From the IMG/VR virus record IMGVR_UViG_3300031234_000818: DNA of 64,000 bases. The stretch is one strand, 5' to 3'. Position numbers and translations under genes: made by a program. Of the stretch, positions 7,675 through 60,939 are shown piece after piece; position 1 is the stretch's first letter, and the number at the start of each line of letters is the position of its first letter. The notes below the pieces were generated by a model. That model was given only the letters and a program-made list of their open reading frames with translations, made no database searches and was not told the DNA's origin. Source of the DNA: a virus.

Positions 7675-7748
7675 GCGGATGTAGCTCAGTTGGTAGAGCG
7701 CCTGCTTGCCAAGTAGGAGGTTCGCCGGTTCAAATCCGGTCATCCGCT
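7675..7748 (+). tRNA. trnG: tRNA-Gly(GCC)
   Basis: cctgc-ttGCCaa-gtagg. Confidence 0.93.
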
Positions 7749-7807
7749 CCGGGTGAAGCGCGTGGATGCGGCCTGGCCCGCCCTCCACGCGCGGATCCTG
7801 CAAACGT

Positions 7808-20923: not shown

Positions 20924-21948
20924 GGGGCTTCGGGCTCGTGACCGACGCGGTAGGTGTGGACGAGGATGGGCGCTTCGATGGGGCCACGCCAGTAGGGCTT
21001 GATCCAGATGTGCTTCCGGCCGGTCCGTCCGACGCCGCAGACCTGGTGCGTGTAGTGGCCGCGGACGAGGTGCTGGACGGACGGCGCGCCGTGCCGGCGC
21101 CCCTCGACGTAGTCGCGGACGGCGGGTCGGCAGTCGACGTCGATGGGCCCGCCCAGCAGGAACGTGCGGTGGTTTGGGGGGCCATCACGGCGCTTGCTCG
21201 TCGGCGCGACCGGCCGATCGGTGGCGCCGCCAAACTTCGGGTGCGCCTGCAGCATGATGAGGAGACCCAGCACATAGCGCTGCGCCAGGACGAGGATGCG
21301 GGCGGCGGCGTCCTTGAGATCGGGCCCCAGGGGTTCGCGGCCGTGGTCGCCGATGGAGAGGCTGTTGTCAGAGTCGGCATCGGCTGTCAGGAGCGCGTGG
21401 AGCGACGCGTTGTACACATGGAGGCGAGCCGCGTCATTGGAGTGCGGGTACAGCTCCATGACCCACACGACGGGCGGATCGTCATCGTCGTGGGTCTTCT
21501 TCCCGGGCGTGGGAACGATCATGGAGGTGGGGACGACGCGCCGGGAGATCATGATCCGGTCGATGGGCTTGCCGTCGATGTGAAGGAGGCCGTCGGGCAC
21601 GATGCACCGGAAGGCGAGCCACGGGACGTGGATGTCTTCCATCGAGTCGACGTGCGCGCGGGTCGACATGAGCGCGGCGGCATATTTGTGACCCGCCATC
21701 AGGCTGGGGTAGCCGTAGTGGGCCCACTGCGCGGCGGTGAGGCCGGCGATGCTGGCGGTCTCGACCTGATGGAGAGGCATGCCGGCCTTGATGAACGTTC
21801 CGAAGAGGTGCCGCCGTGCGCTGACGATGTCCTCGGTCTTCGCGAAGGTGTGCGGCCAGAGGCGCATGCCCAAGAGGGCGAGTTCGTCGTCGGTGGCGCT
21901 GGAGGCGTCCGGCAAGTAGACGACGGTGGGGGCCTGGGAGTCGGTCAC
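20920..21948 (-). CDS. Hypothetical phage protein
   Basis: GTG 21948; C-terminal HLVRGH...W..PYWRG motif of a type common in phage proteins. Confidence 0.65.
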   Translation of the reverse strand: MTDSQAPTVVYLPDASSATDDELALLGMRLWPHTFAKTEDIVSARRHLFGTFIKAGMPLHQVETASIAGLTAAQWAHYGYPSLMAGHKYAAALMSTRAHVDSMEDIHVPWLAFRCIVPDGLLHIDGKPIDRIMISRRVVPTSMIVPTPGKKTHDDDDPPVVWVMELYPHSNDAARLHVYNASLHALLTADADSDNSLSIGDHGREPLGPDLKDAAARILVLAQRYVLGLLIMLQAHPKFGGATDRPVAPTSKRRDGPPNHRTFLLGGPIDVDCRPAVRDYVEGRRHGAPSVQHLVRGHYTHQVCGVGRTGRKHIWIKPYWRGPIEAPILVHTYRVGHEPEAP

Positions 21949-22384
21949 GGGACGCTCCCTTCGGTCACCGGCACGGACAGATCGCCGATGTGGATCCACG
22001 CGTCGATGCCGCGCGCGGCGTTGACGATGCGGGCGTGGTAGCCGGCGGCGACGGCCACTGTGCAGCGAACGCCGGTGCCGTGGGCGAGGGCGCCCTCTCG
22101 CTCCTCGACGGGGCAGAAACGGGCGTAGGGGGCGAGGACGACCATCCCCTCGTCCACGAAGCGAACCGGCTCGAACTTGCGCCTGTCCATCACCAGGCCC
22201 TCCCGCCACGCGTAGGCGTGTGCTCGACCTGGCTGGGGAGCACCAAGATGAACATGCATCGAAGGCCGCCGGGCGTCATGTGCGGCTTGAGGTAGCCCTT
22301 CTTCGTGATGGCCACGCGCTCACGACCGCATCCTTTGCACTTGATGTGGGCGGGCGTCACTCTCGCAGTGGGTCGCATGCACAT

Positions 22385-22495: not shown

Positions 22496-22573
22496 GACCC
22501 TCGTAGCTCAGTTGGATAGAGCGCCAGTTTCGGAACTGGAGGCCAGCCGTTCGAATCGGTTCGATGGGTCCCA
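22496..22573 (+). tRNA. Non-canonical tRNA-Arg-like gene (6-nt anticodon loop, bulged acceptor stem)
   Basis: D arm gctc-agttggata-gagc; ccagt-TTCGGA-actgg; T arm agccg-ttcgaat-cggtt; ends ...gggtc-CCA. Confidence 0.7.
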
Positions 22574-40331: not shown

Positions 40332-40505
40332 TCATCGAGCGATCCGCGCTTCGACAACCTTGCAGCCCTCTTCGACCAACATCTTGATCACGGCGGCGCG
40401 CGGGATCTTGACGCCGGTCTGCTTCACCAGGGCCACGCGGATCTTCTCCAGGCGGGCTTTGGTGCCTTTTTCGAACCGGATGCTGAGGATGTCGGTCGCC
40501 GCCAT
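40332..40505 (-). CDS. Ribbon-helix-helix-like DNA-binding protein (57 aa)
   Basis: ILSIRFEKGTKARLEKIR...IPRAAVIKMLVEEG (beta-alpha-alpha pattern). Confidence 0.7.
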   Translation of the reverse strand: MAATDILSIRFEKGTKARLEKIRVALVKQTGVKIPRAAVIKMLVEEGCKVVEARIAR

Positions 40506-40592
40506 CGCTACATGGTAGCTCATAGGGCTTCGATGGGTAAGCTTGTGGCTGGATCGCCAGAACCGTGCCAGAATGGGCTGGGTACAGCGCAC

Positions 40593-40666
40593 GTTCCTTG
40601 AAAACCCCCGCGTCGTGGTCCGCTCCTGACGATAGCGCCCACGCTCCCCTCGCTTGCGAGGATGCC
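40593..40666 (+). repeat. Leader-like 74-nt segment, duplicated at 52575-52649
   Basis: gttccttgaaaac..ccgcgtcgtggtccgctcc...cctcgcttgcgaggatgcc in both places. Confidence 0.9.
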
Positions 40667-40734
40667 ACGCTACCTTGCTACCGCGCGTGCGTGGATGGGC
40701 CGCAGTTCGACCGGAGTCACGATCTGAAGGACAG

Positions 40735-41228
40735 GTCGTGCCCGCGCGTGCGCGGATGTGCCGCAGAGGCAGTAGCGTCGGCTGGATGGGCACACGTCAA
40801 GCCCGCGCGTGCGCGGATGTGCCGTCTCTCGCGCAGTCGCTTCTTCCGCTCCGGCAGTCGAAACCGTGCGAGCGCGGATGAACCGAAGCGAGCCACCAGA
40901 GGACGTCTGAGACATCCGGGCTCATTTGCCAGGAAAGATGAGTAGTTTCGAAGTGTCGTGCCCGCGCGTGCGCGGATGGACCGGCCCCTCACGACCGACC
41001 CCCACGGTTCTTCGGGTCGTGCCCGCGCGTGCGCGGATGGACCGGCAGCGCCCAACGGTCGCGAGGTTACGTGTCGCGTCGTGCCCGCGCGTGCGCGGAT
41101 GGACCGTCGGGCCGATTCGCCAGGTCATCGATCCCGTTGTCGTGCCCGCGCGTGCGCGGATGGACCGTCCAGACTGTCGTTCCTGTCAGACCTGTTGAGC
41201 GTCGTGCCCGCGCGTGCGCGGATGACCG
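40735..41228 (+). CRISPR. Well-formed type I-E-like CRISPR array block
   Basis: 29-nt GTCGTGCCCGCGCGTGCGCGGATGGACCG exact at 40955, 41016, 41078 and 41139, variants at 40735, 40796, 40857 and 41201; unique 32-33-nt spacers (one 69-nt gap). Confidence 0.92.
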
Positions 41229-41298
41229 CGCGGGTACCTGGATACCACGGGCTCCTCCCTTTGAGGCGCCGGGCCGCCTAGGATGCTACGGTCGTGGT

Positions 41299-41481
41299 GT
41301 GGGAGACATCGTCGAGTCGTTGCCCGAGGGCTCGGACGTTGCCGTGATCGTCGCGGCTGGTGACGAAGCCTTCGCCGCCTTCGACATCGACGAACAACAA
41401 GTGGCAGAGCTTCTTGCCTCGATCGAAGAGGCGGATTGCGGCGAGTTTGTTTCCCTGGATGATGTGCTGAAGTCGAGGTGA
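41299..41481 (+). CDS. Small antitoxin-like protein inside the array
   Basis: C-terminus LASIEEADCGEFVSLDDVLK resembles addiction-module antitoxins. Confidence 0.45.
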   Translation: MGDIVESLPEGSDVAVIVAAGDEAFAAFDIDEQQVAELLASIEEADCGEFVSLDDVLKSR

Positions 41482-44020
41482 CGACGCGCTCGCGGTCGTT
41501 AGTCGTTCCGCGTGCGCGCGATGGATCGTCGAGCAACTGGAGGATGAGCGTCGCCTCGTGCTCCTGCCTCGCACGCGCGGATGAACCACCGCGCAGGCGG
41601 CTCTCCATGTCGGGGTCGGTGTCGTTCCCGCGCACGGCGCGGATGTTTCGGGCCCATTGGGGAAGAGCGCGCGATGGCGTCGTGCCCGCGCGTGCGCGGA
41701 TGGACCGGCGTACCTCGTGCACGAGCGCGTGAACCGGATCGTCGTGCCCGCGCGTGCGCGGATGGACCGAGGAGGTCACGTGGGAGGAACTCCCCGACGA
41801 CGTCGTGCCCGCGCGTACGCGGATGGCCATGTCCATGGTGCCTTGCCGTATGGGCCCAGCCACACGTCGTTCCCGCGCTCGCGCGGATGGGCCGTACCCT
41901 CGTGATTGGCGTGCGACGAACACGTGGCCCCGCGCTTGCGCGGATGAACCGTTCCAGACGAAGGTGCTCGAACACCTTGGGCTCATCGGTCGTCGGTGTC
42001 CCGCGCACGCGCGGATGAGCCTGACTTTCCGCTGATCGTTGGGACGGACAGACACACGCCATTCCGCGCGAGCGCGGATGAACCGAGCCAGCCTGCCTTC
42101 GTACGAACGCATCGGTCTCGACGTTGCTCCCGCGCGTGCGCGGATGAGCCGAACTCACATCGGGCGGCGACGAGTGAACAACGGCCGCGCGTGCGCGGGT
42201 CGGTCGGCGTTCCCGCGCGAGCGCGGATGGATCGGACCACCCGAACGACATCGACGGGCAGCTGTGTAGGACGCCGCGCGAGTGTGGATGGGCCTTGCCG
42301 GTGGTCGTTGTCGCTCAGGACGATGGTCGTCGCTCCCGCGCGTGCGCGGATGGGCCGCAACAGTGAAACTGAGCGTGCGGCGTTGGCTCGCGTCGTTCCA
42401 GCGCGAGCGCGGATGAACCGTCGTCGCGGAGATGCGCGATGGTCACGGCGATGTTACTGCCGCGCGAGTGCGGATGGGACTAGGCCACCTCGCCAAGGCT
42501 CCGCACTTCAACATGGCCTCTCCCGCGTCCTCGTGGATGAACCGCCAAGCTCGCCTCGATGCGCGATGATGTCGATGAAGTGGCTCCCCGCGCCAGCGCG
42601 GATGAGCCGCGCGGGATGGACATCGCCCATCGTGTGAGTAGCGTGTCTCCCGCGCCAAGCGCGGATGAGCCAAACGCCGATCGCGAGATGGTCGAGCTTC
42701 TTCACGCGCGAGCGCGGATGCGCCGCTTCGACTATGCGACTATGCGACCGAGGGTGCCTGCATTGCCTCCTCTTCCGCGCGTACGCGCGGATGAACCGGC
42801 CTCCGGACCGATGGGGCCACGTGCTCCAGAGAGCCCTCGCTCCGCGCGGATGGACCGGACGATGTGGTCTACACGCCGCCACGCTATCGTCACCGCGCTT
42901 CGCGCGGATAGACCGGCTCACGAGGTGCCTGGCGGATTCAAGTCGCTCGTCACCACCGCGCTTACGCGGATGAACCGATGCTCTGCCACCTCTGGGCCGA
43001 GACGCGATCCTTCGTCTCGTCGGCACTGATACCCAAAGCGACCATCGCGTCGAAGCGTCGAACACGTGACGTGACGACGTGACGGTGGTGGCTCAGTGGC
43101 GTGGCCGCGCGCGCGCGGATGGACCGACGACCTTGTCAGGAAGCCAGCAGCCGATACCGTCTCTCCCGCGTGCGCGTGGATGTACCGAAGTAGCCGAAGT
43201 CGACGAGTTCGGTCTCGACGCCGTTCGTGTCTACCGCGCCCGTGCGGATGAACCGTACCGCCGCATGTTCTTCGCGGCCCAAGCCTACAAGCCGCCTAGC
43301 TCCCGCGCTCGCGCGGATGTGTCGCGCGGCGCGTTCAGCGGGCGGACCGGATACTGGTCACCTGTCGTGGCCGCGCTCCGCGCGGATGGATCGTGGGCAG
43401 GGCGAGTTATCTGGCCGGACTCACGTGACCACCGCCCGCGTCAGCGTGGATGCGCCCTCGGGGATCTAGCAGGTCGTGCACAACGGTCGTGCCGCGCGCG
43501 CAGCGCGGATGGACCGCCGAGTACCCACCAGGCCGTACGATCCGCCGTTCCGCGGCACGGCCCACCTTCAGCGCCACCGATTGGGAGCGTTTTTTCCGCG
43601 CTCCGCGCGGATGGACCGTACCGCGTGTTGAGGTAGTTGCTGATGGATGGACCGTCCGACAGGACGTGCAGGCAGTTGTGTGACGGTCTCCGCGCGTCGC
43701 GCGGATGAACCAGTGAACCGGTGGAGCGTTCTCAGTGCCCGTCGCCTATGGTCTGCGTTGCCGGCCGGCGTCCCCGTGCGCGCGCGGACTACCTTGGTGG
43801 AGCAGCTGTTTTGAGCCCCATGCCCCCATGCCCATGACGACGTTTGGTCGCACGCCTCGTACCTGCGCCCGAGCGCGCGGATGGACCGAACAGCGGGCAG
43901 AAGACCGCGTCGCAGCTCGTGTCACTCCCGCGCGTGCGCGGATGGTCCGTGGTTCCGACGTCCCAGGCGGCTTGATCCAGTCCCTCCCCGCGCGAGCGCG
44001 GATGATGACCGTGTGGGCGA

Positions 44021-44353
44021 TCAGGTCCATGGGTACCTTGGTCGCCGCCGCGCGGTGCGCGGCCCCTCGGGCAGCCGGAGCACGGCGCGGTCGAAGTCGC
44101 GGGTCGCACTCCGGTACGCGAGCAGGCCGCGGTCGAACTCTTCGTCGGACGCGAGCCATGCGGCCTCGCGTGGCACGCGCTCGGCGGCGACGTCGGCTGA
44201 GCGAAGCTCGGTGAGCGCGGCGCGAACGTCCGGTGGCATTCGCTCGATGACCTCTCCTGGCTGTCCCTGGTAGCGTCGGTAGCGGCGAGACGAGACGAGC
44301 GACGGGTGTCCGCCGCGGACGATGGTGTAGTCGAGAGCGCTCGCTGGAGTCAT
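44021..44353 (-). CDS. Hypothetical protein inside the array
   Basis: 110-aa ORF filling a repeat-free gap. Confidence 0.55.
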   Translation of the reverse strand: MTPASALDYTIVRGGHPSLVSSRRYRRYQGQPGEVIERMPPDVRAALTELRSADVAAERVPREAAWLASDEEFDRGLLAYRSATRDFDRAVLRLPEGPRTARRRPRYPWT

Positions 44354-45504
44354 GGGTCGTAGCCTACCACTGGATCGGCTTTACGCCGCACCGCTTCCAG
44401 GCCGCGTCGACAGTCTCCGCGCGGGCGCGGATAAGCCAAAGCGACCCAAGGTGGTGTGAGCGACGCATGACCGTCATCCCCGCGCGCGAGCGCGGATGAA
44501 CCGCTGACGAAGTCCGCCCATGTTCGAGGTAGGTCATTGCTCCCGCGTGCGCGCGGATGGGCCGACAGGAGTTCACGTGGTGCCACGTTCAGGCGTTCAG
44601 GCTGTTCACTCCCGCGCGAGCGCGGATGGATCTCCGGCCGTGTTGACCGCTGGCCACGTGTCGTCGTCACGAGTAGCTCTTGGCTGCCAGCGTAGTGCGC
44701 GGATGGCTCACGGTACATGGCGCCCACATGCGGGGCATGCGGCATGCGGAGTCGGAATGTGCCAGCGCGATTGCGCGGATGGACCTCGGTACCTCGACGG
44801 ATGGCAGGCATTCAAGAGGGTAACCGCGCGCCTGCGCGGATGATCCGTCGGCGTGTGACGCCTCGTCGGTAAGGCCGAACCTCCACCCAGCGCGAGCGCG
44901 GATGTGCCAAACGGCTGGACGGTGTTGATGCGGAGGATGAGGATGACCGCCATGCCCGCGCAAGCGCGGATGGTTCGTGGTCGCCAGTCGAGCGAGTAGC
45001 GATGTGATGGACCGAAGCGCAAGACGCCAAGGCCCAAGTCGCCAGTCGCCGTACATGCGTGCGGATGAGCCGCGGAATGGATTCGGCCCGATCATGGGAG
45101 CGAGCCGCGTCGTTGCGCGGATGAACCGGCCGGAGAGGTGCTTACCGAGAGCGAGTACGTCGTCTCCGCGCAAGCGCGGATGGAGCACGTTTGCGCAGCC
45201 GGTCAGACTCTCGATTGCTGTTCGTGGGTCCGCGCGTAGCGCGGATGAACCGTCGCCACAACTGCGGGCGGGTGTAGCCAAGCGGTCCGCGTGTGCCGCG
45301 GATGCGCCTTGCCCAAACTCGTGGGCCACGATGCCCAAGACTCCGCGCCACGCGCGGATGGTTTACGCGTGCGTCGGTGAGGGCTTACGTTACGCCGGTG
45401 GTCGACCGCGCGTGCGCGGAGGTGCGGGTATCGCAGTACTGCTTGATACTGGCCGGCGATCAACGTTTCGCTGACGCCATGATGGCGGTAGGCTAGAAGC
45501 AGCC

Positions 45505-46497
45505 ATGGGATGCAAGGTCTTGCTGCTACACTTGGACGGGAAGCTGCCCAATGTGGCCCTGATGCGCATCGCGGCCCACCATCGCGCGCTGGGCGACGAG
45601 GTGGAGCTGCGGCACGCGCCCACGGTGGCCTCGGTGGAGCCGGAGATCCTCGACAGGCACGATCGGGTCTACGCCTCCTGCATCTTCGAGCGGACGCGCC
45701 CCGTTGCGGAGCGAGTGCTGCAGGCCCATCCAGGCGCCATGGTCGGCGGTACGGGTTTTGACGTTGTTCGAGGCTTGGAAGACGTGGGCATCGAGACCGA
45801 CGTGCAGGACTACGCGATCTACCCGCGCTTCCGGCAGTCGATCGGCTTCACGCAGCGTGGCTGCAGGCTGAAGTGCTCCTTCTGTGTCGTACCGCGCAAG
45901 GAGGGGCGCGTGCGAGGTGTCCAGACCGTCGAGCAGCTCTGGCGCGGGGCGCCGTGGCCTCGCGAGCTTCTTCTGCTGGACAACGACTTCTTCGGCCAGG
46001 ACGACTGGCGCGAGCGCGTGCGTGAGATGCGCGACGGCGGCTTCAAGGTGTGCTTCTCGCAAGGGATCAACGCGCGGGCGTTGACGGAGGAGACGGCGGA
46101 GGCGATCGGCGCGCTCGACTACCGCGACGATTCGATGAAGACCAAGCGGATCTACACGGCCTGGGACAACAAGAAGGACGAAGCGCGACTTTTCCGTGGG
46201 CTCGACCTCCTTGTGAAGGCTGGCGTCAAGCCGGACCACATCATGGTCTACATCCTGGTCGGGTACTGGGCGGGTGAGACGGCCGAGGACCGCGACTACA
46301 GGCGGCAGCGACTGAGGGACTTCGGGGCGCGTCCGTACCCCATGCCCTTCGTGCGGACGCAGGAGCTGGTGTCCTTCCAGCGATGGGTCATTGGCGCCTA
46401 CGACAAGAGCGTCCCCTGGGCGGACTGGTGTGCGGCCCGCGGTTCGCCGCGGAACCTGACTGTGGGCTCGCAGCAGCGGTCACTTCCTCTCTACTGA
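45505..46497 (+). CDS. Radical SAM (Fe-S) protein inside the array
   Basis: RGCRLKCSFCVV (CX3CX2C); N-terminal LDGKLPNVALMRIAAHH; LLDNDFF. Confidence 0.9.
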   Translation: MGCKVLLLHLDGKLPNVALMRIAAHHRALGDEVELRHAPTVASVEPEILDRHDRVYASCIFERTRPVAERVLQAHPGAMVGGTGFDVVRGLEDVGIETDVQDYAIYPRFRQSIGFTQRGCRLKCSFCVVPRKEGRVRGVQTVEQLWRGAPWPRELLLLDNDFFGQDDWRERVREMRDGGFKVCFSQGINARALTEETAEAIGALDYRDDSMKTKRIYTAWDNKKDEARLFRGLDLLVKAGVKPDHIMVYILVGYWAGETAEDRDYRRQRLRDFGARPYPMPFVRTQELVSFQRWVIGAYDKSVPWADWCAARGSPRNLTVGSQQRSLPLY

Positions 46498-47061
46498 GCA
46501 CCCGCGTACGCGCGGATGGACTCGACGTGAGCAAGCGCATCGCTCCACGCAAGCGAGGATGCCTCGCACCTTCACGCCGTCGCAACCGTGATCGCGTGAT
46601 CGCTGCGACCGTGTAAGCCACCGTGCATGCGCGGATGACCCGTCGGTCGCTCAGCTGCGGCTGGCCGCTACACGTGAGGGCCGCCGCGCGTCGCGCGGAT
46701 GGCCCACCTGGTTTTAGTTACGCGTCTCCGAACTCGTCGCTCGAACACGCGCACCCGCGCTCTGCGCGGATGACCCGTGAGTAGGCGGCCCATTATTCCC
46801 AGGGATGCTTGGACACCGCGCCATCGCGCGGATGCCTCGTTCGATGACCGCGCGACATTCGAGAGTCCCGTGTTACTGCCGCGTGCGCGCGGATGGCCCG
46901 TAGTTTGGCTGCATGGTCGCGTCAAAGACGAGTGCGCTGCCGCGCCAAGCGCGGAGGAACGAGTGCTGGCACGCATTCGCAGCGCGGTCTGCTAGATTGC
47001 GTTCGGTGAGCCTACGGAGACTGCAGGCGATGGTCCAAGGCTGGCTGGGAGGCAGATTGAC

Positions 47062-47238
47062 ATGTCCGAGCATGACTGGATGGTCGTCCTGAACGCGAAG
47101 AGCAAGGTCAACGCGACCAACGAAGCCCGAAAACGGCGCGAGCGTGGCGAAAATTCCAGGGCCCGAAGCATAGACGGCTACTGGGTCGTGGAAGTCTGGA
47201 CGGACGCCTACGGGCCGGACCATCTAATGCGCGGATGA
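47062..47238 (+). CDS. 58-aa hypothetical protein whose stop codon is supplied by a repeat
   Basis: gggagg RBS, MSEHDWMVVLNAKSK...; stop is the TGA of gcggaTGAac. Confidence 0.55.
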   Translation: MSEHDWMVVLNAKSKVNATNEARKRRERGENSRARSIDGYWVVEVWTDAYGPDHLMRG

Positions 47239-47246
47239 ACGCGCTC

Positions 47247-47277
47247 TGTTTGACCGACGGTCATACAATGGTAGGAT
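47247..47277 (+). promoter_or_regulatory. Promoter with TGAC-N5-GTCA palindrome (copy 2)
   Basis: tgtTTGACCgacggtcatacaatggTAGGAT; ATG at 47284. Confidence 0.6.
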
Positions 47278-47283
47278 CCGCCC

Positions 47284-47679
47284 ATGGCGATGGACTTCCA
47301 GTCGTTTCTCACGCGTGTGGTCCAAGACGGCATCGCTTCGGCGAAGACGGACTCGCAGTTGCAGTCGCATCCCAAGCGGTTGCGGGGGTCCATCAGCGGC
47401 TTCGAGTCCTGCCTGGGCAAGAATGCCGCGCAGCTGTGGGAACTCCTTGCGGACGCGAACCGCAAGGCATGGGACGTTCGTGTCGAGCAGGAAGACGACA
47501 AGGACAATACGTACGACATCGAGGACTACTGGGAAGCTCGGTACGTAGCAATCCAGGTTGAGTGGGTGTGCAACACCGTGTCGGCCGCGATGGCGAGCCA
47601 AGGCCACACGATCGTGCCACCGACGGCGCGCGGGTACATGAACGCCGCCCGTATCCTCGGTGTCGAAGGCGCAAACTAG
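47284..47679 (+). CDS. Hypothetical protein inside the array
   Basis: 131 aa; a repeat begins immediately after the TAG. Confidence 0.7.
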   Translation: MAMDFQSFLTRVVQDGIASAKTDSQLQSHPKRLRGSISGFESCLGKNAAQLWELLADANRKAWDVRVEQEDDKDNTYDIEDYWEARYVAIQVEWVCNTVSAAMASQGHTIVPPTARGYMNAARILGVEGAN

Positions 47680-48115
47680 GCGGTCCCGCGCGAGCGCGGA
47701 TGACCCGCGCGTGTGCGAGTTCGACGTCTTCTCCACTCAGCGCAGCACCAAGCGCGTAAGCGCGGATGAACCCGACACGTTCGACGGGTTACGCGTGGTG
47801 TGTCTCCGCGCGTTCGCGCGGATGAATCGGTCGACGGGATCGGCGCATGGTTCGATCCAACGCTTCCGCGCCAGCGCGGATGTACCGGCCAGGCGTCGCA
47901 CCGTAGGACCGTCCCTGTTCAGCGGCCGCGTGTGCGCGGATGGTCCTTGGGTCAAGCGGCCGGCAGCCGCGGAGGGCCTCAGGTAGCCCGCGCTACGCGC
48001 GGATGAACCTTGAACTCGGCCTATGAGGTGGAAGTCGGGCCGTACTCGCCGCGCTACGCGTGGATGAAACGTAAGCCCATGAGCGCGAGCATCGAGACAT
48101 GGTACGCTCGGGACC

Positions 48116-48337
48116 ATGCCGAAGGACGTTTTGTACGGCCCGATCCAGGCGCGTGGCTACGACGACATCACGCTCGTCGTCGAGCACGAGGCCTTCTTTC
48201 CCGACGGGACTTCGATGAAGATCCCGGCTGGAACGAAGCTCGTCATGACGTGCTTGGCTGGCGGTGGCGGTCCGACCGTCGAGTACCGGGGCGGTTGCGT
48301 CGAGAGAGCGGATGTGAAGCGGTCACCCGCTGCGTAG
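48116..48337 (+). CDS. Hypothetical protein inside the array
   Basis: 73 aa; a repeat begins immediately after the TAG. Confidence 0.6.
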   Translation: MPKDVLYGPIQARGYDDITLVVEHEAFFPDGTSMKIPAGTKLVMTCLAGGGGPTVEYRGGCVERADVKRSPAA

Positions 48338-48540
48338 GTTCCGCGCGTTCGCGTGGATGGACCGTTCGATAGAGTCACGGTGGTGCGACCCACCTTCCGC
48401 GCATCGCGCGGATGGACTGGTTTCAGCCCGCACGGCTACCAAGATCATCGGCGATGTCCCGTGCGATGCGCGGATGTCCCTTACTCAGGCATCCTCGGTG
48501 CGGCGTAGCGAGTTCGCCCGCGCTTGGCGCGGAGGCAGTC

Positions 48541-49170
48541 TCAGGCCGAGATGGTCGATGCGAAGCGCTGCAACGCGGCCTTGGCCTCACTGACGTTGTT
48601 GCGGCCCCAGAGTGGCTCGATGCGTGAGATCGGGCTGCCGTCGTTCACGCGCAGGTGGACGATGTGCCCGTCGAGAATCGCGTCCTTGAACTTCTCGACC
48701 CATTCGGTCTCGAAGTAGTTACGCATGTCGTTCGCCATGTCCGAGAGATCGCACTCGGACTCGTTGCCGTTCGTCCACACGGCTTGCACCATGGCGATGA
48801 TCGGGCCTGGCTTCGGCCCGCGACCCGTCTTGTAGTCCCTCGACTTGTCGACGCGCTCGTAGACCACGAAGGCCTTGAGGACGCGACACGTGCCTGACTC
48901 GCACTCGATGGGGTACTCGGCCGAGTCTTTTCTCGACCGATAGAGGTCGACGTACATGCCCGGCGTGAGCGTTCGGTACTGCGTCATGAGCGCGGCCAGG
49001 CATTCCTTCGAGCAGGCCATAGTGTTGGCCTGGTAGCCATGCACCCACACCCAGTCGTCCGGTGGAGGTCCGCCCTTGTGTTTGCGTCCTACGCGGTCGC
49101 AATGGGCGCATAGGCAGTCGACCATCGGGCCGAGATTCGTGTGCTTGGTGCAATCATGTGTGCAGTTCAT
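48541..49170 (-). CDS. Hypothetical protein with Cys-rich N-terminus
   Basis: Last gene of a leftward operon. Confidence 0.65.
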   Translation of the reverse strand: MNCTHDCTKHTNLGPMVDCLCAHCDRVGRKHKGGPPPDDWVWVHGYQANTMACSKECLAALMTQYRTLTPGMYVDLYRSRKDSAEYPIECESGTCRVLKAFVVYERVDKSRDYKTGRGPKPGPIIAMVQAVWTNGNESECDLSDMANDMRNYFETEWVEKFKDAILDGHIVHLRVNDGSPISRIEPLWGRNNVSEAKAALQRFASTISA

Positions 49171-49204
49171 GGTGTTCCTTCAAGCTGGGAGGTTGTCGCC
49201 ACCT

Positions 49205-50134
49205 TCACGCGGGCAGCGTCGAGCGAAACTCACCGAACGCGTTGACGGCGGTTCCCAGTAGCTCGCCCCGCAGGCACAGCTCGTCGCAGAGCATCATCCG
49301 GCGGTAGCCGACGTCGTGGAGCCATTGAAGCTCCAGGAAGTCGGCGCAGGACGGGACGGGCCCTTCGACGATGGAGAGGAGGAGGCGCGAGGCGACGCAG
49401 GCCTTGGGGTCCTTGTCGACGATGAGCCGGAGGGCCTGGGCGATCCGGTGGGGCCGGTCGATCTCGACGTAAAGGTCTCCGCGCGCGGCGACGAGGACGA
49501 GGTTGTCCCTCTTCTTGAACGTGTCGGCCACGTACGAGAGGCCACGCATGCTCTCGATCTTGAGCCAGACCTCGCTGTCTTTGCCTGCGAGTTCCAGGAA
49601 CTGGTCGATGTCGCGCTCCTCCTCGACGTAGGAGAGAAACCACTGCTTGAAGCCGGCCTTGCGGCACTTCTCGATCTTGAGCTTCTCCTCGGGGATGAAG
49701 AGATCGCCCAGGATGCGGAGGTTGGGGTCCCGGAGGTAGAGCGACTCACCGGCCTTGACCTTGTACCGGGGGCCGCCCTGGAAGACGAGGCGCTGGCCGC
49801 CTTCCTCCAGGTGGTCGAGCATGGCGTGGTCCGCCCCGCCCTTGAAGATGACGACGCTGGGCGTGGCCACCTCGACGGCGTGGTTCAGGCGGAGATCGAG
49901 GTGGTCGTCGTTCGGGATGACCTCGATGACGCGCGGCTGTCGGGCCTTCACGTCGAAGTAGAGGTCGACCTTCTGGATCTTCTTCTGCTCCTCGATGACC
50001 TTCAGCTCGTGGTCCAGCTCGGGATTGCTCATCATTGCGCTGTTCAGGCGGATGCCGCTCAAGCGGTCGTCCTGCACGAATCGCTCGTAGTGAGGGAAGC
50101 TTGGCCAGAGGGTGGCCAGGAGATCGACGCCCAC
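49205..50134 (-). CDS. Pyruvate-kinase-like barrel protein (no C-terminal regulatory domain)
   Basis: ATLWP, IRLNS, FDVK, LSYVE, LKIE..GL, ARGDLYVEI, ASRLL.S..PVPSCAD, MMLCDE align with PK motifs. Confidence 0.75.
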   Translation of the reverse strand: MGVDLLATLWPSFPHYERFVQDDRLSGIRLNSAMMSNPELDHELKVIEEQKKIQKVDLYFDVKARQPRVIEVIPNDDHLDLRLNHAVEVATPSVVIFKGGADHAMLDHLEEGGQRLVFQGGPRYKVKAGESLYLRDPNLRILGDLFIPEEKLKIEKCRKAGFKQWFLSYVEEERDIDQFLELAGKDSEVWLKIESMRGLSYVADTFKKRDNLVLVAARGDLYVEIDRPHRIAQALRLIVDKDPKACVASRLLLSIVEGPVPSCADFLELQWLHDVGYRRMMLCDELCLRGELLGTAVNAFGEFRSTLPA

Positions 50135-50137
50135 GGC

Positions 50138-51085
50138 CTACTTCCCCAGCAGGCCCTTGGCGGGCTTGGCATCGGGCAGGTGCATGACGGATTTGCCCTT
50201 GGCGGACTTGTGGGGCGGGAGCGTGCCGTGGACGGTCTTCAGGGAGGTGTAGACGGTGTCGACCTGGCCTGGGTCCTGGCGGCCTTCCAGCTCCTTGCGG
50301 AAGTAGTCGATGCGGTTGGTCTCCTTGGCGAGGATGCCGAAGATGACGTCGACGACGCGCTCGGGCGCCTGGAGGGCGACGACGTGGTCTTCGCCCAGTA
50401 GGCCAACCCACTGACGGTGGATGGGGCCGTCGTCCACGGCGTACGCCTTGCGCACGACGTAGACGGAGTACTTGCGTCGCAGCTCCTCGAAGATGTCGGT
50501 CGTGTCGATCCTGGACGTGGTGTTGACGTGGTTGGCGACGGCGTGAGCTTTCTCGACGTAGGGGTGCAGGCCTTCGTCGCCGATGAAGACGATGATGGGC
50601 TTGATGGCTTTGGGCATGGAGACGTTGCGGGCGTAGTAGAGCGCGGCCAGCTCGTAGCTTTCGCACTGGTCGCTGCCGCCGCCGCGCTCGATGACGAGCG
50701 CCTTGAGGTGCTCGGCGAGCTTGGTTCCCCTGTCGAAGGTACGGACCTGGAGCGGGTACTTGTCGCCCTGCGTGGCGTCGCCCACGGCGGCGAAGCTGAT
50801 CTCCATCTCCTCGCCCAGGTACTGTTTTCCCTCGATGTCGAGGTAGGGCAACTTCGAGAAGATGACGGCGGGCCACTCGCCCATCGAGCCGGTGACGTCG
50901 CAGACGACGACCAGGGGCGAAGGGCTGCTGGTGGACAGGGCCTCGGGCACGAGGTCCGCGGCCTTCACGCCTGTGGTCTTGGCGTCGCTGTAGCTACGCC
51001 CGGCGTGGGCGTCGTAGCTCGTGCGGGCCGCGGTGAAGTCGTGGCCCTTCCATTCGCCCGGATCGTAGTCAGACGTTTCGGCCAT
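50138..51085 (-). CDS. vWA-domain protein (copy 1)
   Basis: MIDAS-like DVTGSMG; GGG.D..ESYE; FIGDE. Confidence 0.8.
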   Translation of the reverse strand: MAETSDYDPGEWKGHDFTAARTSYDAHAGRSYSDAKTTGVKAADLVPEALSTSSPSPLVVVCDVTGSMGEWPAVIFSKLPYLDIEGKQYLGEEMEISFAAVGDATQGDKYPLQVRTFDRGTKLAEHLKALVIERGGGSDQCESYELAALYYARNVSMPKAIKPIIVFIGDEGLHPYVEKAHAVANHVNTTSRIDTTDIFEELRRKYSVYVVRKAYAVDDGPIHRQWVGLLGEDHVVALQAPERVVDVIFGILAKETNRIDYFRKELEGRQDPGQVDTVYTSLKTVHGTLPPHKSAKGKSVMHLPDAKPAKGLLGK

Positions 51086-51383
51086 GGGCGTCTCCCTCGG
51101 TCATGGGTGCGTACGGAACCTCCCATGGTCTTGGCTGGTCGTCGAAGTATTGGTCCTTGATGGGGAACCCGTTCTCCAGATCCCGCATGGCGTCGAGCGG
51201 CACCCATAGGATCTGACCGTCGGAAGTCTCGCAGCGGTAGCGCATGCTCTCGACGTGATTGTGGTAGCCCTCCCGCTGGTTGACCTCGACCTTGAACCGC
51301 AGGGTCCATCCTTCACGCTTCTTGAGGTAGTGCTCGTTCTCGGAGTCCGGTAGGACAACGAGGTACACGCTGCGAGTGTGCAT
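51069..51383 (-). CDS. Hypothetical protein
   Basis: Operon-packed; ggaga RBS. Confidence 0.6.
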   Translation of the reverse strand: MHTRSVYLVVLPDSENEHYLKKREGWTLRFKVEVNQREGYHNHVESMRYRCETSDGQILWVPLDAMRDLENGFPIKDQYFDDQPRPWEVPYAPMTEGDAHGRNV

Positions 51384-51397
51384 GAGGCGAGTCTCCT

Positions 51398-52399
51398 TCA
51401 GAGCCCTGGGATGGGCTTCATGCCGGTCCAGGTGCGTCCGAATGCTTTCTGTCTGATGTCGCGGAACATGTTGAAGAGGTCACCTCGTGGTCGCGCGAGG
51501 ATGTCGTGAGCGATGAGGCTCTTGACGAAGTCGCTGATGGGACCAGGGACGCTTGCCGGGACCTTGAGCTGTTCGACGGCCTTCATGTTGCCGCTGAGCG
51601 CGTAGATCATGAGCATGCCCAGGCTGTAGAAGTCGCTTTCTGGCAGGAGGGTCTTGCCGGCGAGCTGCTCGGGCGGTGCGAAGAATGGCGTGTAGCCCAT
51701 GGCTTTGGCCTTGGGGGCGGGCTTGACCATCGACAGGCCGAAGTCGACGAGCACGACCGCGTGGATGTCGGGTTGGACGATGATGTTCTGAGGCTTGATG
51801 TCGCCGTGGACGACGCCGTGGTGGTGCAGGTAGAGAAGGGCGTTGAGGATGCGGTCGACGATCCAGGCGACGGACTCGGGCTCGATCTTGCCGACCTTCT
51901 CGACCAGCTGCTCCAGCGTGAGCCCGGGGATGTAGCTCATGATGAGCGCCAGGCTTCCGTCTTCCAGCCGGTGCATGTCGCGCATGGCTGGGAGCGCGTG
52001 GTGGCGAAGATCCCAGATGGCCTTCGCCTCGGCGATGAGGACGGCGTCGTGGGCGGCTGAGACCTGCGAGCAGTGCTTGATGCACACGGGCTCGTCGTTG
52101 ATAGTCTGCTCGCCCTTGTACGTCGATCCGAAGCCTCCCTCGGCGATGAGGTCGAGCACGCGGTAGTTGCCCAGGATGGTACCTGCGGTTTTCGAGCGGG
52201 CGGCGAGATCGTACTTCTCGCGCTCCGCCGGGCTGGAGAGCACCTTGTAGGCCTTCGTGATGGCGTCGAAGGCGTCCTTGTCGCCGCCCTTGTCGGGGTG
52301 GTGGACGCCTGCGAGGGCATGGTACGCGGCCCTGATGACGACCTGGCTGGCCTGCGGGCTCACTTCGAGGATGCGGTAGTGCGGAAGCACGAGGGCCAT
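51398..52399 (-). CDS. J-domain fused to a Hanks-type Ser/Thr protein kinase
   Basis: HYRILEV...HHPDKGGD (HPD); GGFGSTY, CIK, HGDIKPQN, DFG, APPE. Confidence 0.9.
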   Translation of the reverse strand: MALVLPHYRILEVSPQASQVVIRAAYHALAGVHHPDKGGDKDAFDAITKAYKVLSSPAEREKYDLAARSKTAGTILGNYRVLDLIAEGGFGSTYKGEQTINDEPVCIKHCSQVSAAHDAVLIAEAKAIWDLRHHALPAMRDMHRLEDGSLALIMSYIPGLTLEQLVEKVGKIEPESVAWIVDRILNALLYLHHHGVVHGDIKPQNIIVQPDIHAVVLVDFGLSMVKPAPKAKAMGYTPFFAPPEQLAGKTLLPESDFYSLGMLMIYALSGNMKAVEQLKVPASVPGPISDFVKSLIAHDILARPRGDLFNMFRDIRQKAFGRTWTGMKPIPGL

Positions 52400-52420
52400 G
52401 TCGTCGTTGTCTCGGTGACC

Positions 52421-52450
52421 GTTATACCGCGTGTAAAACATGGTGGTCAA
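52421..52450 (-). promoter_or_regulatory. Promoter TTGACC-N18-TATAAC for the kinase operon
   Basis: -10 at 52421-52426, -35 at 52445-52450. Confidence 0.55.
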
Positions 52451-52624
52451 GCGACGCGTCCCCGAGAAAGCTGCGGCTGTTCATAGGGTCATCCTGCGCC
52501 GAGACAAGCGCGAGAGGCGCCGTTGGCCTGGGTACGCGACCGCGTGTAGAGTGTGGGCCCCGCGCGTTGCGGGTGTTCCTTGAAAACTCCCGCGTCGTGG
52601 TCCGCTCCGTGACGACAGCGGCCA

Positions 52625-53285
52625 CGTCCACCTCGCTTGCGAGGATGCCCCAACGTCGACGATTACCGCGCTGTTCGGTGATGGTGACCGCGCCGTGCGC
52701 GGATAGGCCAAACCTCGGCTCGTGAGCCATCGGTATGATGGTCGTGGTGCCCGCGCGTGCGCGGATGTTCCTGCACATTGCCAGGCGGCGCAGGAGTTCA
52801 TGCGTGGTCCCCAGCGCCTTCGCGCGGATGAGCCGAGGTTGGCGCTCCAGGCCGTGACGACCGTGGTCCGGCGCACGTTCACGCCCGAGCGATCCTGCGC
52901 GAGCGCGGATGGAGCGAAGACGCCAGCCGAGATGAGGGCGGAACAGGTCGTCGTCCGCGCGCGCGCGGATGCGCCGTACCCGCTTGTGCCGCCGACGTTG
53001 TTCACGTTCCGCGCCGCGCGTTGCGCGGATGGTCCGGTGCTGGACCTGACACGTGGAAGGCCCATGAGAGAGCCCGCGCTTGGCGCGGATGGCTCCGACT
53101 TTGGCGGCCACTAGGAGGTGCACATCGACTGCCCGTGCTCCACGTCTTGCGTGGATGATCCGAACCGGTGCAGAGCGTACGGCTGGCCGTGGTCGCGCCG
53201 CGCCATGCGCGGATGGTCCGATGTACGGGCTGGAGATGGTGGGGCGTTCGGACGTTATGGCCCGCGCGTTGCGCGGACAGGGTGT
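52625..53285 (+). CRISPR. Second degenerate array (~11 repeats) behind the duplicated leader
   Basis: Same core repeat, e.g. gtgcccgcgcgtgcgcggatgttcc at ~52747; ~60-70-nt period. Confidence 0.75.
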
Positions 53286-53289
53286 CTGG

Positions 53290-54141
53290 TCACGCGAAAA
53301 CGCGGACGCACTCCCGCATGGTGTTGTCGTGGATCTCCAGCACCTTGGGGATGCTTCCGTCTCGTTCGACCTGGTAGCCGCCTGCGAGGTTCCACGCGAC
53401 GGGGACCTTGCTTCCGGCCAGCGTCTCGAAGACGATGGCGTCACGCTGGCGTAGCTGGTCGGTCGTGAGCCAGCCACCTTGTGGATCGTCCACGTGTGGA
53501 TCGGCCCCCGCCTGGTAGAGGACGACGTCGCAGCTCTTCATGGAGGCGAGCACTTCGGGCAGTCGTTCGAAGAATGCAGGCGCGTGACCCGGATGAAAGA
53601 AGTGGCGCCCTCCAGTGAAATGGCAGACCCAGTCTTCCGCGCCACGCGCTCGGATGATGTGGTCGGTGCCGTTGCCGTAGTGCATATCGATGTCGAGGAT
53701 GCCGATGCGGTCGGCACCGTCGTGCTTCAGCGCGCAGGCGGTGACCATCAGGCCGTTGAAGGTGCAGAAGCCCTGGGCCTTGGCAAACTCCGCGTGGTGA
53801 AACCCGGAGCAAGGAGCTGCCGCCGCGCCACCGGACGAGAGGACGTGCCTGGCGGCGGAGAGCATCGCGCCCGATGTGTGCAGGAGCGAACGCGCGATGG
53901 TGAGCGACATGTTGCCGAACCCGTTGGGCTTCCTGCACTCCAGGATGTCCATCACGAACTGCCGGTCATGGGCCCTGGCGATGTCGTCGACGGTGACGGG
54001 CGTGGGCTCGATGAGGGCGACGGGGAACTGCTTCTGCCACGAGGCGACAACCTGTGCAGGCTTTGCGGCGCTTGGCGAGTAGGACTCGGAGTCCGCAACC
54101 ATCTTGGGCGTGTAGAAGACGGGAATGGTGGCTGCAGGCAT
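53290..54141 (-). CDS. Zn-dependent histone-deacetylase-family protein
   Basis: GFHHA...GFCTFN, LDIDMHYGNGT, AGADPH.DDP.G, GGY. Confidence 0.92.
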   Translation of the reverse strand: MPAATIPVFYTPKMVADSESYSPSAAKPAQVVASWQKQFPVALIEPTPVTVDDIARAHDRQFVMDILECRKPNGFGNMSLTIARSLLHTSGAMLSAARHVLSSGGAAAAPCSGFHHAEFAKAQGFCTFNGLMVTACALKHDGADRIGILDIDMHYGNGTDHIIRARGAEDWVCHFTGGRHFFHPGHAPAFFERLPEVLASMKSCDVVLYQAGADPHVDDPQGGWLTTDQLRQRDAIVFETLAGSKVPVAWNLAGGYQVERDGSIPKVLEIHDNTMRECVRVFA

Positions 54142-58758: not shown

Positions 58759-59925
58759 ATGCTGAGCGACCTCGAAGCCGTCCAAGCGGTCCTCGCGAAA
58801 GCGCGGTGCCCGGAGGACGTGTTCGGCGTGCTGCATGGTGGCGGCGTGGCGGAGTTGCACGCGGCGCTCAAGAAGTCCTACCATCAGGTCGCTCGGGTCG
58901 TGCACCCGGACAAGTACGCCGATCAGCCGGTGGCGTTCAAGCTGGCGACGGGGCTCTTCGGTCACGTGACGGAGTGGTTTCAGAAGGCGCGATCGAAGGT
59001 CGACGCCAAGACCTACGGCGACAACGCGCCGCACGTGGAGGCGCCGCCCAAGCCTGCGATCTCGCCGCAGATCATCCAGACGCCCAAGGGCAAGTACATC
59101 GTGACGGAGCTTCTGGCCCACGGGGACCTGGCCGATCTCTACCGGTGCTCTTACACCGACGAGGACGGCCGCGAGCAGCGGGCCGTGTTCAAGATCGCGC
59201 AGAGCGCGGCGGACAACGATCTCTTGGAGAACGAGCAGAAGACGCTCCGCGCGATGTACGCGCCAGCGCAGGCGGAGGAGAAGTTCTACCGGTACCTGCC
59301 GAAGCTCCACGACTCGTTCCTGTTGCGGCAGGAGCGCGGAGCGAACCGTCGCGTGAACGTCCTGCAGCTGGCGGATGGGTACGTGTCGCTCGCCGAGGTG
59401 ATGGAGGCGTTTCCATCGGGGATCGACGTGGCCGACGCCGCGTGGATGTTCAAGCGCGCGCTGGCGTGTCTCTGGTACGTGCACGAGAGGAAGGGCGTCG
59501 TGCACGGGGCGGTGCTGCCCGAGCACGTGCTGGTGCACCCGAAGAGGCACGGCGCGAAGCTCGTCGACTGGTGCTACGCAGTTTCCGACTGGAAGACGAC
59601 CGACGGGAAGGTGAAGGCGATCTCGAAGGCGCGCCGCGCGTACTACGCGCCGGAGGTGCTGTCGAAGGGGCGGGTGACGCCGCAGACGGACATCTACATG
59701 CTTGGAAAATGCATGGTGGCGCTGCTGGGCGGGAGCGCGGAGGGCCGCGAGACGCCAGACACCGTGCACGTGGGGATGAAGAGCTTCTTGCGGAGCTGCC
59801 TCATCGAGGCGCAGCCGATGCGCCCCGACGACGCGGGCAAGCTTCACGAGGATCTGGACGAGCTATTGCTGCGCATCGTGGGGCCACGGGAGTACCGCGA
59901 ACTGACGATGCCGGCCAAGGTGTGA
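58759..59925 (+). CDS. J-like domain + atypical or pseudo protein kinase
   Basis: VHPDKY; catalytic loop HGAVLPEH instead of HRD..N; DWCY in place of DFG; APE. Confidence 0.75.
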   Translation: MLSDLEAVQAVLAKARCPEDVFGVLHGGGVAELHAALKKSYHQVARVVHPDKYADQPVAFKLATGLFGHVTEWFQKARSKVDAKTYGDNAPHVEAPPKPAISPQIIQTPKGKYIVTELLAHGDLADLYRCSYTDEDGREQRAVFKIAQSAADNDLLENEQKTLRAMYAPAQAEEKFYRYLPKLHDSFLLRQERGANRRVNVLQLADGYVSLAEVMEAFPSGIDVADAAWMFKRALACLWYVHERKGVVHGAVLPEHVLVHPKRHGAKLVDWCYAVSDWKTTDGKVKAISKARRAYYAPEVLSKGRVTPQTDIYMLGKCMVALLGGSAEGRETPDTVHVGMKSFLRSCLIEAQPMRPDDAGKLHEDLDELLLRIVGPREYRELTMPAKV

Positions 59926-59943
59926 AAGAGAGGACGGTTTCTC

Positions 59944-60939
59944 ATGGGGTATTCAAGTTACAGTGACGAGTTCTACAAGGGCCGAGTGGCCAGCAGGAAG
60001 GCCACCGGGACGGCCACGTTCATTCACGACGCCACTGTGCGGTCGGGGAAGGTCAAGGCGGGCGTGCATGCCTCGCTGAACATCCACGGCAAGATCCGCG
60101 AGGCGCGCGACAGCAAGGAGCACCCGAACTCGACGCCCGTCGCGATCGTGTTCGACCAGACGGGATCCATGCACAGCGTGCCCAGGATCATGCAGGACAA
60201 GTTGCCGCAGTTCATGGGGCTGGTCCTCCGCAAGGGGTACATCGAGGACCCGGCGGTGCTCTTCGGCGCCATCGGGGACTACAACAACCACGAGGATGCG
60301 CCGCTGCAGATCGGGCAGTTCGAGTCCGGCATCGAGATGGACGACAACATCACGCACATCTACCTGGAGGGTGGCGGCGGCGGTTCGTACGAGGAGTCGT
60401 ACCAGAACGCCCTCTACTTCTTCGCGCACCGCACCCGCTGCGACGCGTTCGAGAAGCGCGGCAAGAAGGGGTACCTCTTCATCATCGGTGACGAGAAGGC
60501 CTACTCGCGCTCGACGAAGTCGGAGCTGCAGACGCTCATCGGCGACGGCGCGCAGGCGGATGCGTCGCTCGACGAGATCGTGGCGGCGGTGAAGGAGAAG
60601 TGGGAGGTGTTCTTCATCATCCCCAGCGGGACGTCGCACTACGACGACCCTGTGCTGGAGAACTTCTGGAAGAAGTACCTGGGCCAGAACGTCATCAAGC
60701 TGGAGGATCCGAACGCGATCTGCGAGACCATCGGCCTCGCGATCGGTCTCATGGAGGGGACGGCCTCGGCGGACGGCATGGCGGGGGATCTGAAGGACGT
60801 CGGAGCGAGCGACGCGATCGTGCACGCGGCTTCGACGAGCGTGGGCGGCATCGCGAGGGACCGGGCGATGACGAAGGTCGGCACGGGCGGCTCGCTGCCG
60901 TCGAAGGCGGGCCGCTCCGAGAAGATCGAGCGGCTGTAG
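59944..60939 (+). CDS. vWA-domain protein (copy 2)
   Basis: FDQTGSM; GAIGD; LEGGGGGSYEESY; IIGDE. Confidence 0.85.
   Translation: MGYSSYSDEFYKGRVASRKATGTATFIHDATVRSGKVKAGVHASLNIHGKIREARDSKEHPNSTPVAIVFDQTGSMHSVPRIMQDKLPQFMGLVLRKGYIEDPAVLFGAIGDYNNHEDAPLQIGQFESGIEMDDNITHIYLEGGGGGSYEESYQNALYFFAHRTRCDAFEKRGKKGYLFIIGDEKAYSRSTKSELQTLIGDGAQADASLDEIVAAVKEKWEVFFIIPSGTSHYDDPVLENFWKKYLGQNVIKLEDPNAICETIGLAIGLMEGTASADGMAGDLKDVGASDAIVHAASTSVGGIARDRAMTKVGTGGSLPSKAGRSEKIERL

Follow-up and report, generated by a model that had tools for sequence, protein, structure and literature searches.

A large, dispersed CRISPR repeat locus in a phage-like genome from peat, probably served by a type I-E system of the same element

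Introduction

Arrays of short palindromic repeats, clustered and regularly interspaced (CRISPR), in huge phages are compact, with a median of six repeats, and effectors lacking Cas1, Cas2 and Cas4 are known among them (PMC7162821); phage-borne arrays free of cas genes have been thought to borrow proteins of the host. Here we report on a stretch of 64,000 nucleotides (nt) from IMG/VR virus record IMGVR_UViG_3300031234_000818, hereafter the window, and on the sequence adjoining it. This element holds more than 100 repeat units scattered among genes, which probably constitute the CRISPR RNA (crRNA) locus of a type I-E system encoded by the element itself, a large and dispersed locus with no adaptation genes seen. 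Judged by its genes, the element is best read as a huge phage-like genome from peat.

The element resembles the published huge phages (PMC7162821) in being a large metagenomic phage-like genome rich in transfer RNA (tRNA) genes, with effectors unaccompanied by Cas1, Cas2 or Cas4 and with a variant type I system that includes an odd helicase. It differs from them in scale, the window holding about 75-82 units and the surroundings of the cas genes a further 30 or so, spread over more than 65 kb, in the interleaving of mostly degenerate units with genes, and in its subtype, I-E with a Cas8e-Cas11e fusion. Vibrio phage ICP1 likewise encodes a class 1 system, of type I-F, with arrays of its own that are directed against a competing element (PMC7162821). 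In contrast to what is seen here, that phage is reported to have Cas1 and Cas2-3, to acquire spacers, and to keep short clean arrays with known targets beside its cas genes.

With the canonical I-E systems of E. coli and Thermobifida the locus shares a 29-nt repeat, 32-33-nt spacers, a stem-loop and an 8-nt handle ending in CCG, and the Cas8e, Cas11e, Cas7e, Cas5e, Cas6e and Cas3 families are all matched. Unlike those systems, it shows no cas1 or cas2 in about 107 kb, Cas8e is joined to Cas11e in one protein, Cas7e has about 150 additional amino acids (aa), five small open reading frames (ORFs) lie in the operon, the Cas3-like protein carries a DDVY motif and no recognisable Walker A, and the main array is about 42 kb from the cas genes.

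Racr RNAs (PMC10651486) are also repeat-mimicking hairpins in viral genomes; they are solitary, have no cas neighbours and mimic host repeats, whereas the units described here are strung into long periodic arrays, have leaders and unique spacers, and are accompanied by cognate cas genes. The CreR/CreA and viral Cracr loci (10.1101/2023.03.10.532045; 10.1101/2024.10.29.618823) come close in another way, since their degenerate repeats keep the handle-forming nucleotides, they lie in cas intergenic regions, and their pseudo-spacers are variable and often short. Those loci contain one to three spacers with partial matches to cas or toxin promoters, whereas here the spacers show no matches to the element's own sequence above chance, and the scale is about 30-50 times larger. 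What is new in the present locus is the architecture of the I-E variant, the number of units, their interleaving with genes including cas genes, and the selective degeneration of the repeats.

Results and discussion

The repeat array

The 29-nt repeat GTCGTGCCCGCGCGTGCGCGGATGGACCG is present in six exact copies (at 40955, 41016, 41078, 41139, 41679 and 41741), accompanied in the window by about 70 diverged 29-nt units. A search with the anchor G[CT]GGATG returned 82 units, all on the + strand (74 in 40691-48470 and 8 in 52761-53209), and none on the minus strand of the array region. A covariance model of the repeat family, built from 38 units and applied at a cut-off of E<=0.01, gave 74 + strand matches in the window, all within 40674-48364 or 52744-53220, its minus-strand matches being to the palindromic stem only, and an nhmmer profile gave 77 units, every one on the + strand. 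The array is real and far beyond chance, with about 75-82 units in the window.

The repeats extend over 40674-48481 and a second block at 52681-53220. They recur at a median of 62 nt, the period being 59-64 nt in 39 of 61 neighbouring pairs, and the spacers measure 32-33 nt in clean tracts and 24-48 nt in degenerate ones. The consensus folds into a stem of five base pairs (bp), CCGCG/CGCGG, with a 4-nt loop, followed by the 8-nt 5' handle AUGNNCCG; an Rfam search with the repeat region matched no family. The array is discontinuous, co-oriented ORFs dividing it into at least seven tracts (41299-41481, 45505-46497, 47062-47238, 47284-47679 and 48116-48337; Table 1). Long minus-strand ORFs running across the repeats, such as 41186-42112, were rejected as artefacts of repeat translation, and they fail the test on G+C at third codon positions (GC3).

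An earlier, sequence-only reading of the window had described an array of I-E geometry in a phage-like element with only six exact repeat copies. The repeats, the period and the clean spacers agree with that description, and an exact search recovers the same six copies. Its estimate of about 90-100 repeats was right as to a large array and too high as to the number, and its layout of about 8 kb plus a 0.7-kb block stands as two blocks, which measure 7.8 kb and about 0.5 kb.

Effector genes on the same molecule

A look-up of a window protein led to JGI contig Ga0302326_10001259 (65,242 bp), in which locus L206 6462-20510 corresponds to window 1-14050 at 99.98% identity. The genes from Cas3e-like to Cas6e lie 1-12 kb 5' of window position 1, the last one ending 1.06 kb before it, and the module including the helicase is about 42-54 kb upstream of the array (Table 1). 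Moreover, about 30 further degenerate units (E<=0.01, all on the + strand) were found at L211 9048-9934, 12268-13101, 15578-15792 and 16725-17086, and weaker repeat matches widen these tracts to 8998-9934, 15517-15865 and 16725-17201. These upstream units occupy the gaps before the helicase, cas3, the 197-aa ORF and cas8-11, all on the gene strand, an arrangement that links the repeats with these cas genes without recourse to the assembly.

No cas domain was found in the genes called for the surveyed window regions, the part at about 28.5-35.5 kb, where a ribonucleotide reductase (RNR) lies, being covered by an ORF check only. The sequence-only reading had called the array cas-less, which holds for the window alone and fails for the genome, since genes for Cas3e-like, Cas8e-Cas11e, Cas7e, Cas5e and Cas6e proteins sit on the same assembled molecule. 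The lack of cas genes in a window should not be taken to mean a cas-less element.

This result bears directly on the two uses which that reading had proposed, namely a weapon working through the Cascade of the host and a poly-Racr sponge, the RNAs being loaded into, or titrating, the I-E Cas6e and Cas7e of the host. Racrs are indeed established, two I-E Racrs included (PMC10651486), arrays are known from huge phages that have no cas genes (PMC7162821), and irregular spacer lengths would be harmless for a decoy. However, the full set of I-E effector genes stands on one molecule with the same repeats and is interspersed with them, and borrowing a host Cascade becomes unnecessary. The nearest named bacterial Cas7e shows 29% identity across 39% of the length, which makes co-evolution of the repeat with the Cas6e of the element itself the likelier course. 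Furthermore, a search of 401 sampled Myxococcota genomes with a two-repeat pattern based on the 3' part of the repeat gave no array, the repeat is present in the JGI metagenomes in only one related element besides this one, and a sponge would titrate the element's own Cascade too. Periodic arrays with leaders among own cas genes make a sponge an uneconomical reading, and we regard a host-directed role of either kind as very improbable. Use of the array as a weapon between phages is plausible.

The Cas3-like protein (L209 3821-6085) preserves an HD-like motif, FHDVG; at motif II it has DDVY where DEVH would stand, and a Walker A is not recognisable. A homologue of 34% identity (L212 5935-7893) has the same DDVY, again no recognisable Walker A, and no HD region. 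A separate DEAD-type helicase gene (612-635 aa) is located upstream of the Cas3-like gene in both L209 and L212.

Relatives of the long Cas7e were found on other large contigs. The 87% identical one, on a 549,902-bp contig of ENA assembly ERZ26871208, is embedded in the same order of genes (helicase, cas3, cas8-11, five small ORFs, cas7, cas5, cas6), also with intergenic gaps of 600-700 nt in the cas module. The 42% identical one, on a 350,856-bp NCBI contig, belongs to a compact operon with a canonical array (29-nt repeat, 61-nt period) after cas6e, and the 65% identical one is accompanied by a second Cas7e paralogue, with no array within 8 kb. Single-protein and profile searches of IMG/VR did not find the long-Cas7e family. 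The 87% relatives have kept both the number and the size of the five small ORFs between cas8-11 and cas7, which the 42% relative lacks. In some relatives a second, shorter Cas7e paralogue of about 400 aa is found a few genes after cas6e (L213 4450-5652; P0017, on a 763,830-bp ENA contig). What emerges is a lineage of very large elements from peat, with contigs of up to 550 kb, in which a divergent I-E effector combines a fused Cas8e-Cas11e, a long Cas7e and a Cas3 that appears to be impaired; this raises the question whether targets are silenced rather than cut.

Conserved leaders and a related element

In the JGI metagenomes the exact 23-nt repeat core was found only on contig Ga0302325_10006022 (27.4 kb; loci L203-L205), and it is absent from IMG/VR. 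This contig has several arrays among phage-like genes, which together comprise at least 57 units, most of them perfect, with 32-34-nt spacers. It also shares with the window a bipartite leader, L1+L2, which is 88-98% conserved between the two and used two to three times in each; the genes flanking the arrays have zero nucleotide similarity. Copy a of L1 is 90-96% identical to window 52575-52649, L204 1866-1934, L203 12352-12418 and L205 1726-1780. L2 is 98% identical to L205 1791-1847 and 88% to L203 12414-12470, both of which abut a first repeat. The two leader elements adjoin each other in Ga0302325_10006022 and are separated by four degenerate units in the window; a scan of L1 and L2 for sigma-70-like promoters found none. 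The first spacer of array B (40984-41015) is identical to the third spacer of Ga0302325_10006022 (L205 2002-2033), one spacer being common to the two elements.

L1 contains a repeat-like hairpin, CCTCGC-TT-GCGAGG followed by ATGCC (40640-40672 and 52620-52650), like a repeat with both arms of the stem altered (G to U and C to A). No other compensated stem variant was seen, and this one is kept in Ga0302325_10006022. In that contig a run of three spacer-repeat units exists in duplicate, one copy in each of two arrays (L204 2755-2918 and 4487-4707, 90-97% identity), indicating that arrays of this lineage can also grow by segmental duplication.

Position-specific divergence of the repeats

Mismatches to the consensus were tallied over 101 diverged full-length units from the window and the upstream locus. 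They affect 57% of the 5' flank (positions 1-7), 10% of the 5' stem arm, 55% of the loop, 2% of the 3' stem arm, 1% of the AUG at positions 22-24, 57% of handle positions 25-26 and 19% of the CCG at positions 27-29, a heterogeneity across positions of chi2 = 960 with 28 df. Both the detection and the alignment of the units relied on models in which a hairpin scores well; an anchor-based count gives the same pattern, and the anchor-free positions 16-17 and 27-28 are still 80-95% kept. Overall, the hairpin arms, the AUG and the CC are retained at 80-100%. The stem is paired in 94% of the cells of the tally, and the changes that preserve pairing are single G-U wobbles. Such conservation of the stem at the level of its sequence fits a protein that reads the hairpin. 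The sequence-only reading had named uniform substitutions as the mark of a dead array; the substitutions are strongly non-uniform, and the locus is therefore not a simple dead array in that sense.

It could still be mostly a relic, in which only the few perfect units next to a leader make crRNAs and the approximately 100 degenerate ones are functionless leftovers, the hairpins appearing conserved because of a GC-rich palindrome, of gene conversion, or of the selection of matches on the hairpin itself. The 24-48-nt spacers and single-base indels in many units would agree with a relic, as would a stem without compensatory changes, the lack of cas1 and cas2 to renew the array in the approximately 107 kb surveyed, and the use of models that favour the hairpin. 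On the other hand, neighbouring positions within one 29-nt unit are about 25-fold or more apart in their mismatch rates, handle positions 27-28 are kept though they lie outside the palindrome, and so are positions that played no part as anchors. In addition, large non-functional tracts would be unexpected in a virus genome, and the tracts seen here are identical across samples. The old tracts keep exactly the positions predicted to contact Cas6e (hairpin and cleavage site) and Cas5e (handle), which argues against plain neutral decay, and we consider the relic explanation unlikely.

Spacers, populations and transcripts

No spacer is duplicated among the 102 spacers of this genome, and their uniqueness argues for past acquisition one by one. 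Matches of the seed next to the protospacer-adjacent motif (PAM), counted for these spacers against 89 kb of own sequence, are no commoner than in reversed or shuffled controls, and thus give no support for self-regulation of the CreR type. This matters for a further explanation, in which the degenerate units would be regulatory RNAs similar to CreR or Cracr, would punctuate co-oriented genes with Cas6e sites, or would retarget the Cascade of the host. The gaps upstream of the helicase, cas3, the 197-aa ORF and cas8-11 are filled precisely by the units, which in the window also border five ORFs of the + strand, in every case in the orientation of the genes. Autoregulation of I-B, I-E and V-A systems by degenerate mini-CRISPRs between cas genes is moreover known (10.1101/2023.03.10.532045), viral multiplexed Cracr arrays with two or three spacers silence host I-E (10.1101/2024.10.29.618823), and the L1 hairpin has compensated stem changes. 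The seed matches at control level speak against such a role, however, as do the size of known CreR and Cracr loci, which hold one to three spacers and not 100, and the position of tract G, antisense to its neighbour genes. We judge this explanation to be distinctly unlikely.

The array region is present in at least 24 DNA sequencing runs, nearly all of them peat metagenomes together with one cave metagenome, and two JGI contigs match the window at 99.97-100% identity. Contigs from four runs carry the degenerate tracts at 100% identity, and such identity holds across independent peat runs and one cave run. Further contigs link repeat-like flanks by way of different spacers of 30-39 nt, which indicates that related arrays with other spacers co-occur. 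Two metatranscriptome libraries contribute one short contig each, and the 151-nt one matches 40674-40824 exactly and could be DNA carry-over; the two contigs are very weak evidence, too weak to claim transcription.

The proposed system and the evidence against it

Taken together, we favour an element-encoded I-E system, and the relic, the regulatory or processing, and the host-Cas decoy explanations all rank lower. We infer that the tracts would be transcribed on the + strand from the conserved leaders, and probably also by read-through with co-oriented genes. Cas6e would then bind the CCGCG/CGCGG hairpin and cut at its 3' base, leaving the 8-nt 5' handle, Cas5e, Cas7e and Cas8e-11e would assemble on each spacer, and the assembled complexes would attach to DNA that matches, whether from competitors or from the host. 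Nucleolytic interference by this complex is doubtful, because the Cas3-like protein has the DDVY motif and no recognisable Walker A.

The locus would comprise two layers. The young tracts next to a leader, with perfect repeats and 32-33-nt spacers, look like working arrays; the repeats of the long old tracts would have drifted everywhere except at the positions which Cas6e and Cas5e would read. The Cas1-Cas2 proteins used for past acquisition may be encoded elsewhere in the genome, may have been lost, or may have been those of the host.

Several observations weigh against this system. No Cas1 or Cas2 domain was found in gene lists from about -36 kb to +71 kb (about 107 kb of what is probably a much larger genome), which leaves spacer acquisition unexplained. 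The Cas3-like protein looks impaired as a helicase, and Cas6e aligns with solved Cas6e proteins only at the C-terminal glycine-rich motif, an alignment that does not confirm the catalytic histidine. Protospacers were found neither in the 89 kb of own sequence nor in Ga0302325_10006022 nor in INPHARED, and three young spacers, sought in IMG/VR with each sixth base left free, returned none. The 24-48-nt spacers of many degenerate units are a misfit for a canonical I-E Cascade. The stems of the diverged units show zero compensatory double changes, and age structure or gene conversion could account for part of their sequence conservation. The RNA evidence amounts to the two metatranscriptome contigs (40674-40824 and 41465-41608), at a depth of 2-3.5 and with no information on ends or strand. 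Finally, no capsid, portal or terminase gene was seen in about 107 kb of gene lists, and the identity as a phage is deduced from PHROG matches and from gene content such as the 39 tRNA genes, EF-Tu, RNR and NAMPT; searches of IMG/VR did not recover the lineage.

If the old units are still processed, they would represent a natural, large and fixed guide library stabilised by repeat divergence, with Cas6e sites punctuating an operon. One may go further and regard the degenerate units as a maintained feature, the repeats having been selected to diverge except at the Cas6e and Cas5e contacts, which would block the loss by recombination of about 100 fixed guides, and the hairpins around genes (helicase, cas3, cas8-11) coupling mRNA processing or regulation to the CRISPR machinery. 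This is a real possibility, if a rather unlikely one, and it would make the locus a gene-interleaved, self-stabilised CRISPR locus of an undescribed kind.

Genomic context and neighbouring genes

Table 1. Features of the repeat locus in the window and of the cas module upstream. Negative positions are relative to window position 1.
Feature	Position	Strand	Length	Basis or remark
DEAD/ResIII-type helicase	-15302..-13464		612 aa	weak Pfam DEAD/ResIII
Cas3e-like	-12059..-9795		754 aa	PADLOC 1.2e-43
ORF	-9187..-8594		197 aa	no match
Cas8e-Cas11e fusion	-7977..-5881		698 aa	PADLOC Cas8e 1e-74, Cas11e 2.7e-21
Five small ORFs	-5879..-4153 (L209 10001-11727)		90, 78, 165, 141, 98 aa	no family matches
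Cas7e, long	-4156..-2621		511 aa	PADLOC 7.4e-50
Cas5e	-2609..-1905		234 aa	NCBIfam 6.8e-42
Cas6e	-1898..-1056		280 aa	PADLOC 2e-13
Leader element L1, copy a	40595..40662	+		hairpin CCTCGC-TT-GCGAGG then ATGCC; sequence match to other L1 copies, fold
Mini-array A, between L1 and L2	40674..40885	+	4 degenerate units	32-nt spacers
Leader element L2	40899..40954	+		relatively AT-rich; immediately 5' of clean array
Array B	40955..41229	+	4 exact repeats and a variant terminal repeat	32-33-nt spacers
Small ORF inside array, gene status uncertain	41299..41481	+	about 60 aa	no Pfam match
Array tract C	41502..45427	+	about 55 units	two exact (41679, 41741), others degenerate
Radical-SAM-like gene between tracts	45505..46497	+		phrog_9298 2.7e-49; weak Pfam Radical_SAM
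Array tract D	46495..46900	+	6-7 degenerate units	
Two small ORFs (47062-47238, 47284-47679)	47062..47679	+	58 aa, 131 aa	no family matches
Array tract E	47679..48071	+	7 degenerate units	
ORF between tracts	48116..48337	+	73 aa	
Array tract F	48334..48481	+	3 degenerate units	
Leader element L1, copy b	52575..52649	+		5' of second block
Array tract G	52681..53220	+	8-9 units	flanked by minus-strand DnaJ-kinase (51398-52450) and HDAC-like (53290-54141) genes

The window has a G+C content of 62-69% and encodes 39 tRNA genes, EF-Tu, a class II RNR with an intein, NAMPT and NUDIX proteins. Its PHROG matches are phrog_1735 (8.7e-106), phrog_9298, phrog_2971, phrog_3043 and phrog_448. Neither the array nor the RNR gene found a relative when compared with INPHARED by megablast. 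The tRNA genes are on the + strand at 4644-14701 and 22496-22573 and cover nearly all amino acids; EF-Tu (11184-12350) lies within the cluster, and the tRNA-like gene at 22496-22573 has an odd anticodon loop.

As for the host, the UDP-glucose dehydrogenase gene upstream of the window (L211 5531-6904) has named best matches of 68-70% identity, all of them Polyangiaceae or Myxococcota metagenome-assembled genomes, a hint, from this single gene, of a myxobacterial host. Beyond it, still further upstream, is a block of glycosyltransferase and sugar-nucleotide genes. A search for a host array in three Myxococcota genomes gave chance-level matches only, and a loose repeat-pattern scan of a genome collection gave only single chance matches in GC-rich genomes.

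Radical-SAM homologues were tried as comparators for the locus and set aside, the 80 IMG/VR loci having neither such repeats nor synteny. Within tract C, the gap at about 44010-44410 contains a possible minus-strand ORF (44021-44353; GC3 and JGI gene call). The ORF at 41299-41481 ends in a C-terminal motif that looks antitoxin-like by eye only, and a 63-aa ORF at 40332-40524 on the minus strand, divergent from leader L1, appears ribbon-helix-helix-like, also by eye and with no family match. The gene at 20920-22209 (minus strand) has a Pfam AcrVA2-like match (PF26125) in the annotation of an identical Logan contig; PHROGs offers for it just one weak match, of unknown function. Two pairs of a DnaJ/kinase gene with a phrog_2971 gene are found in the window, at 48541-52450 on the minus strand and at 58759-60939 on the + strand, and one such pair sits between the array blocks, adjoining a pyruvate-kinase-barrel-like gene.

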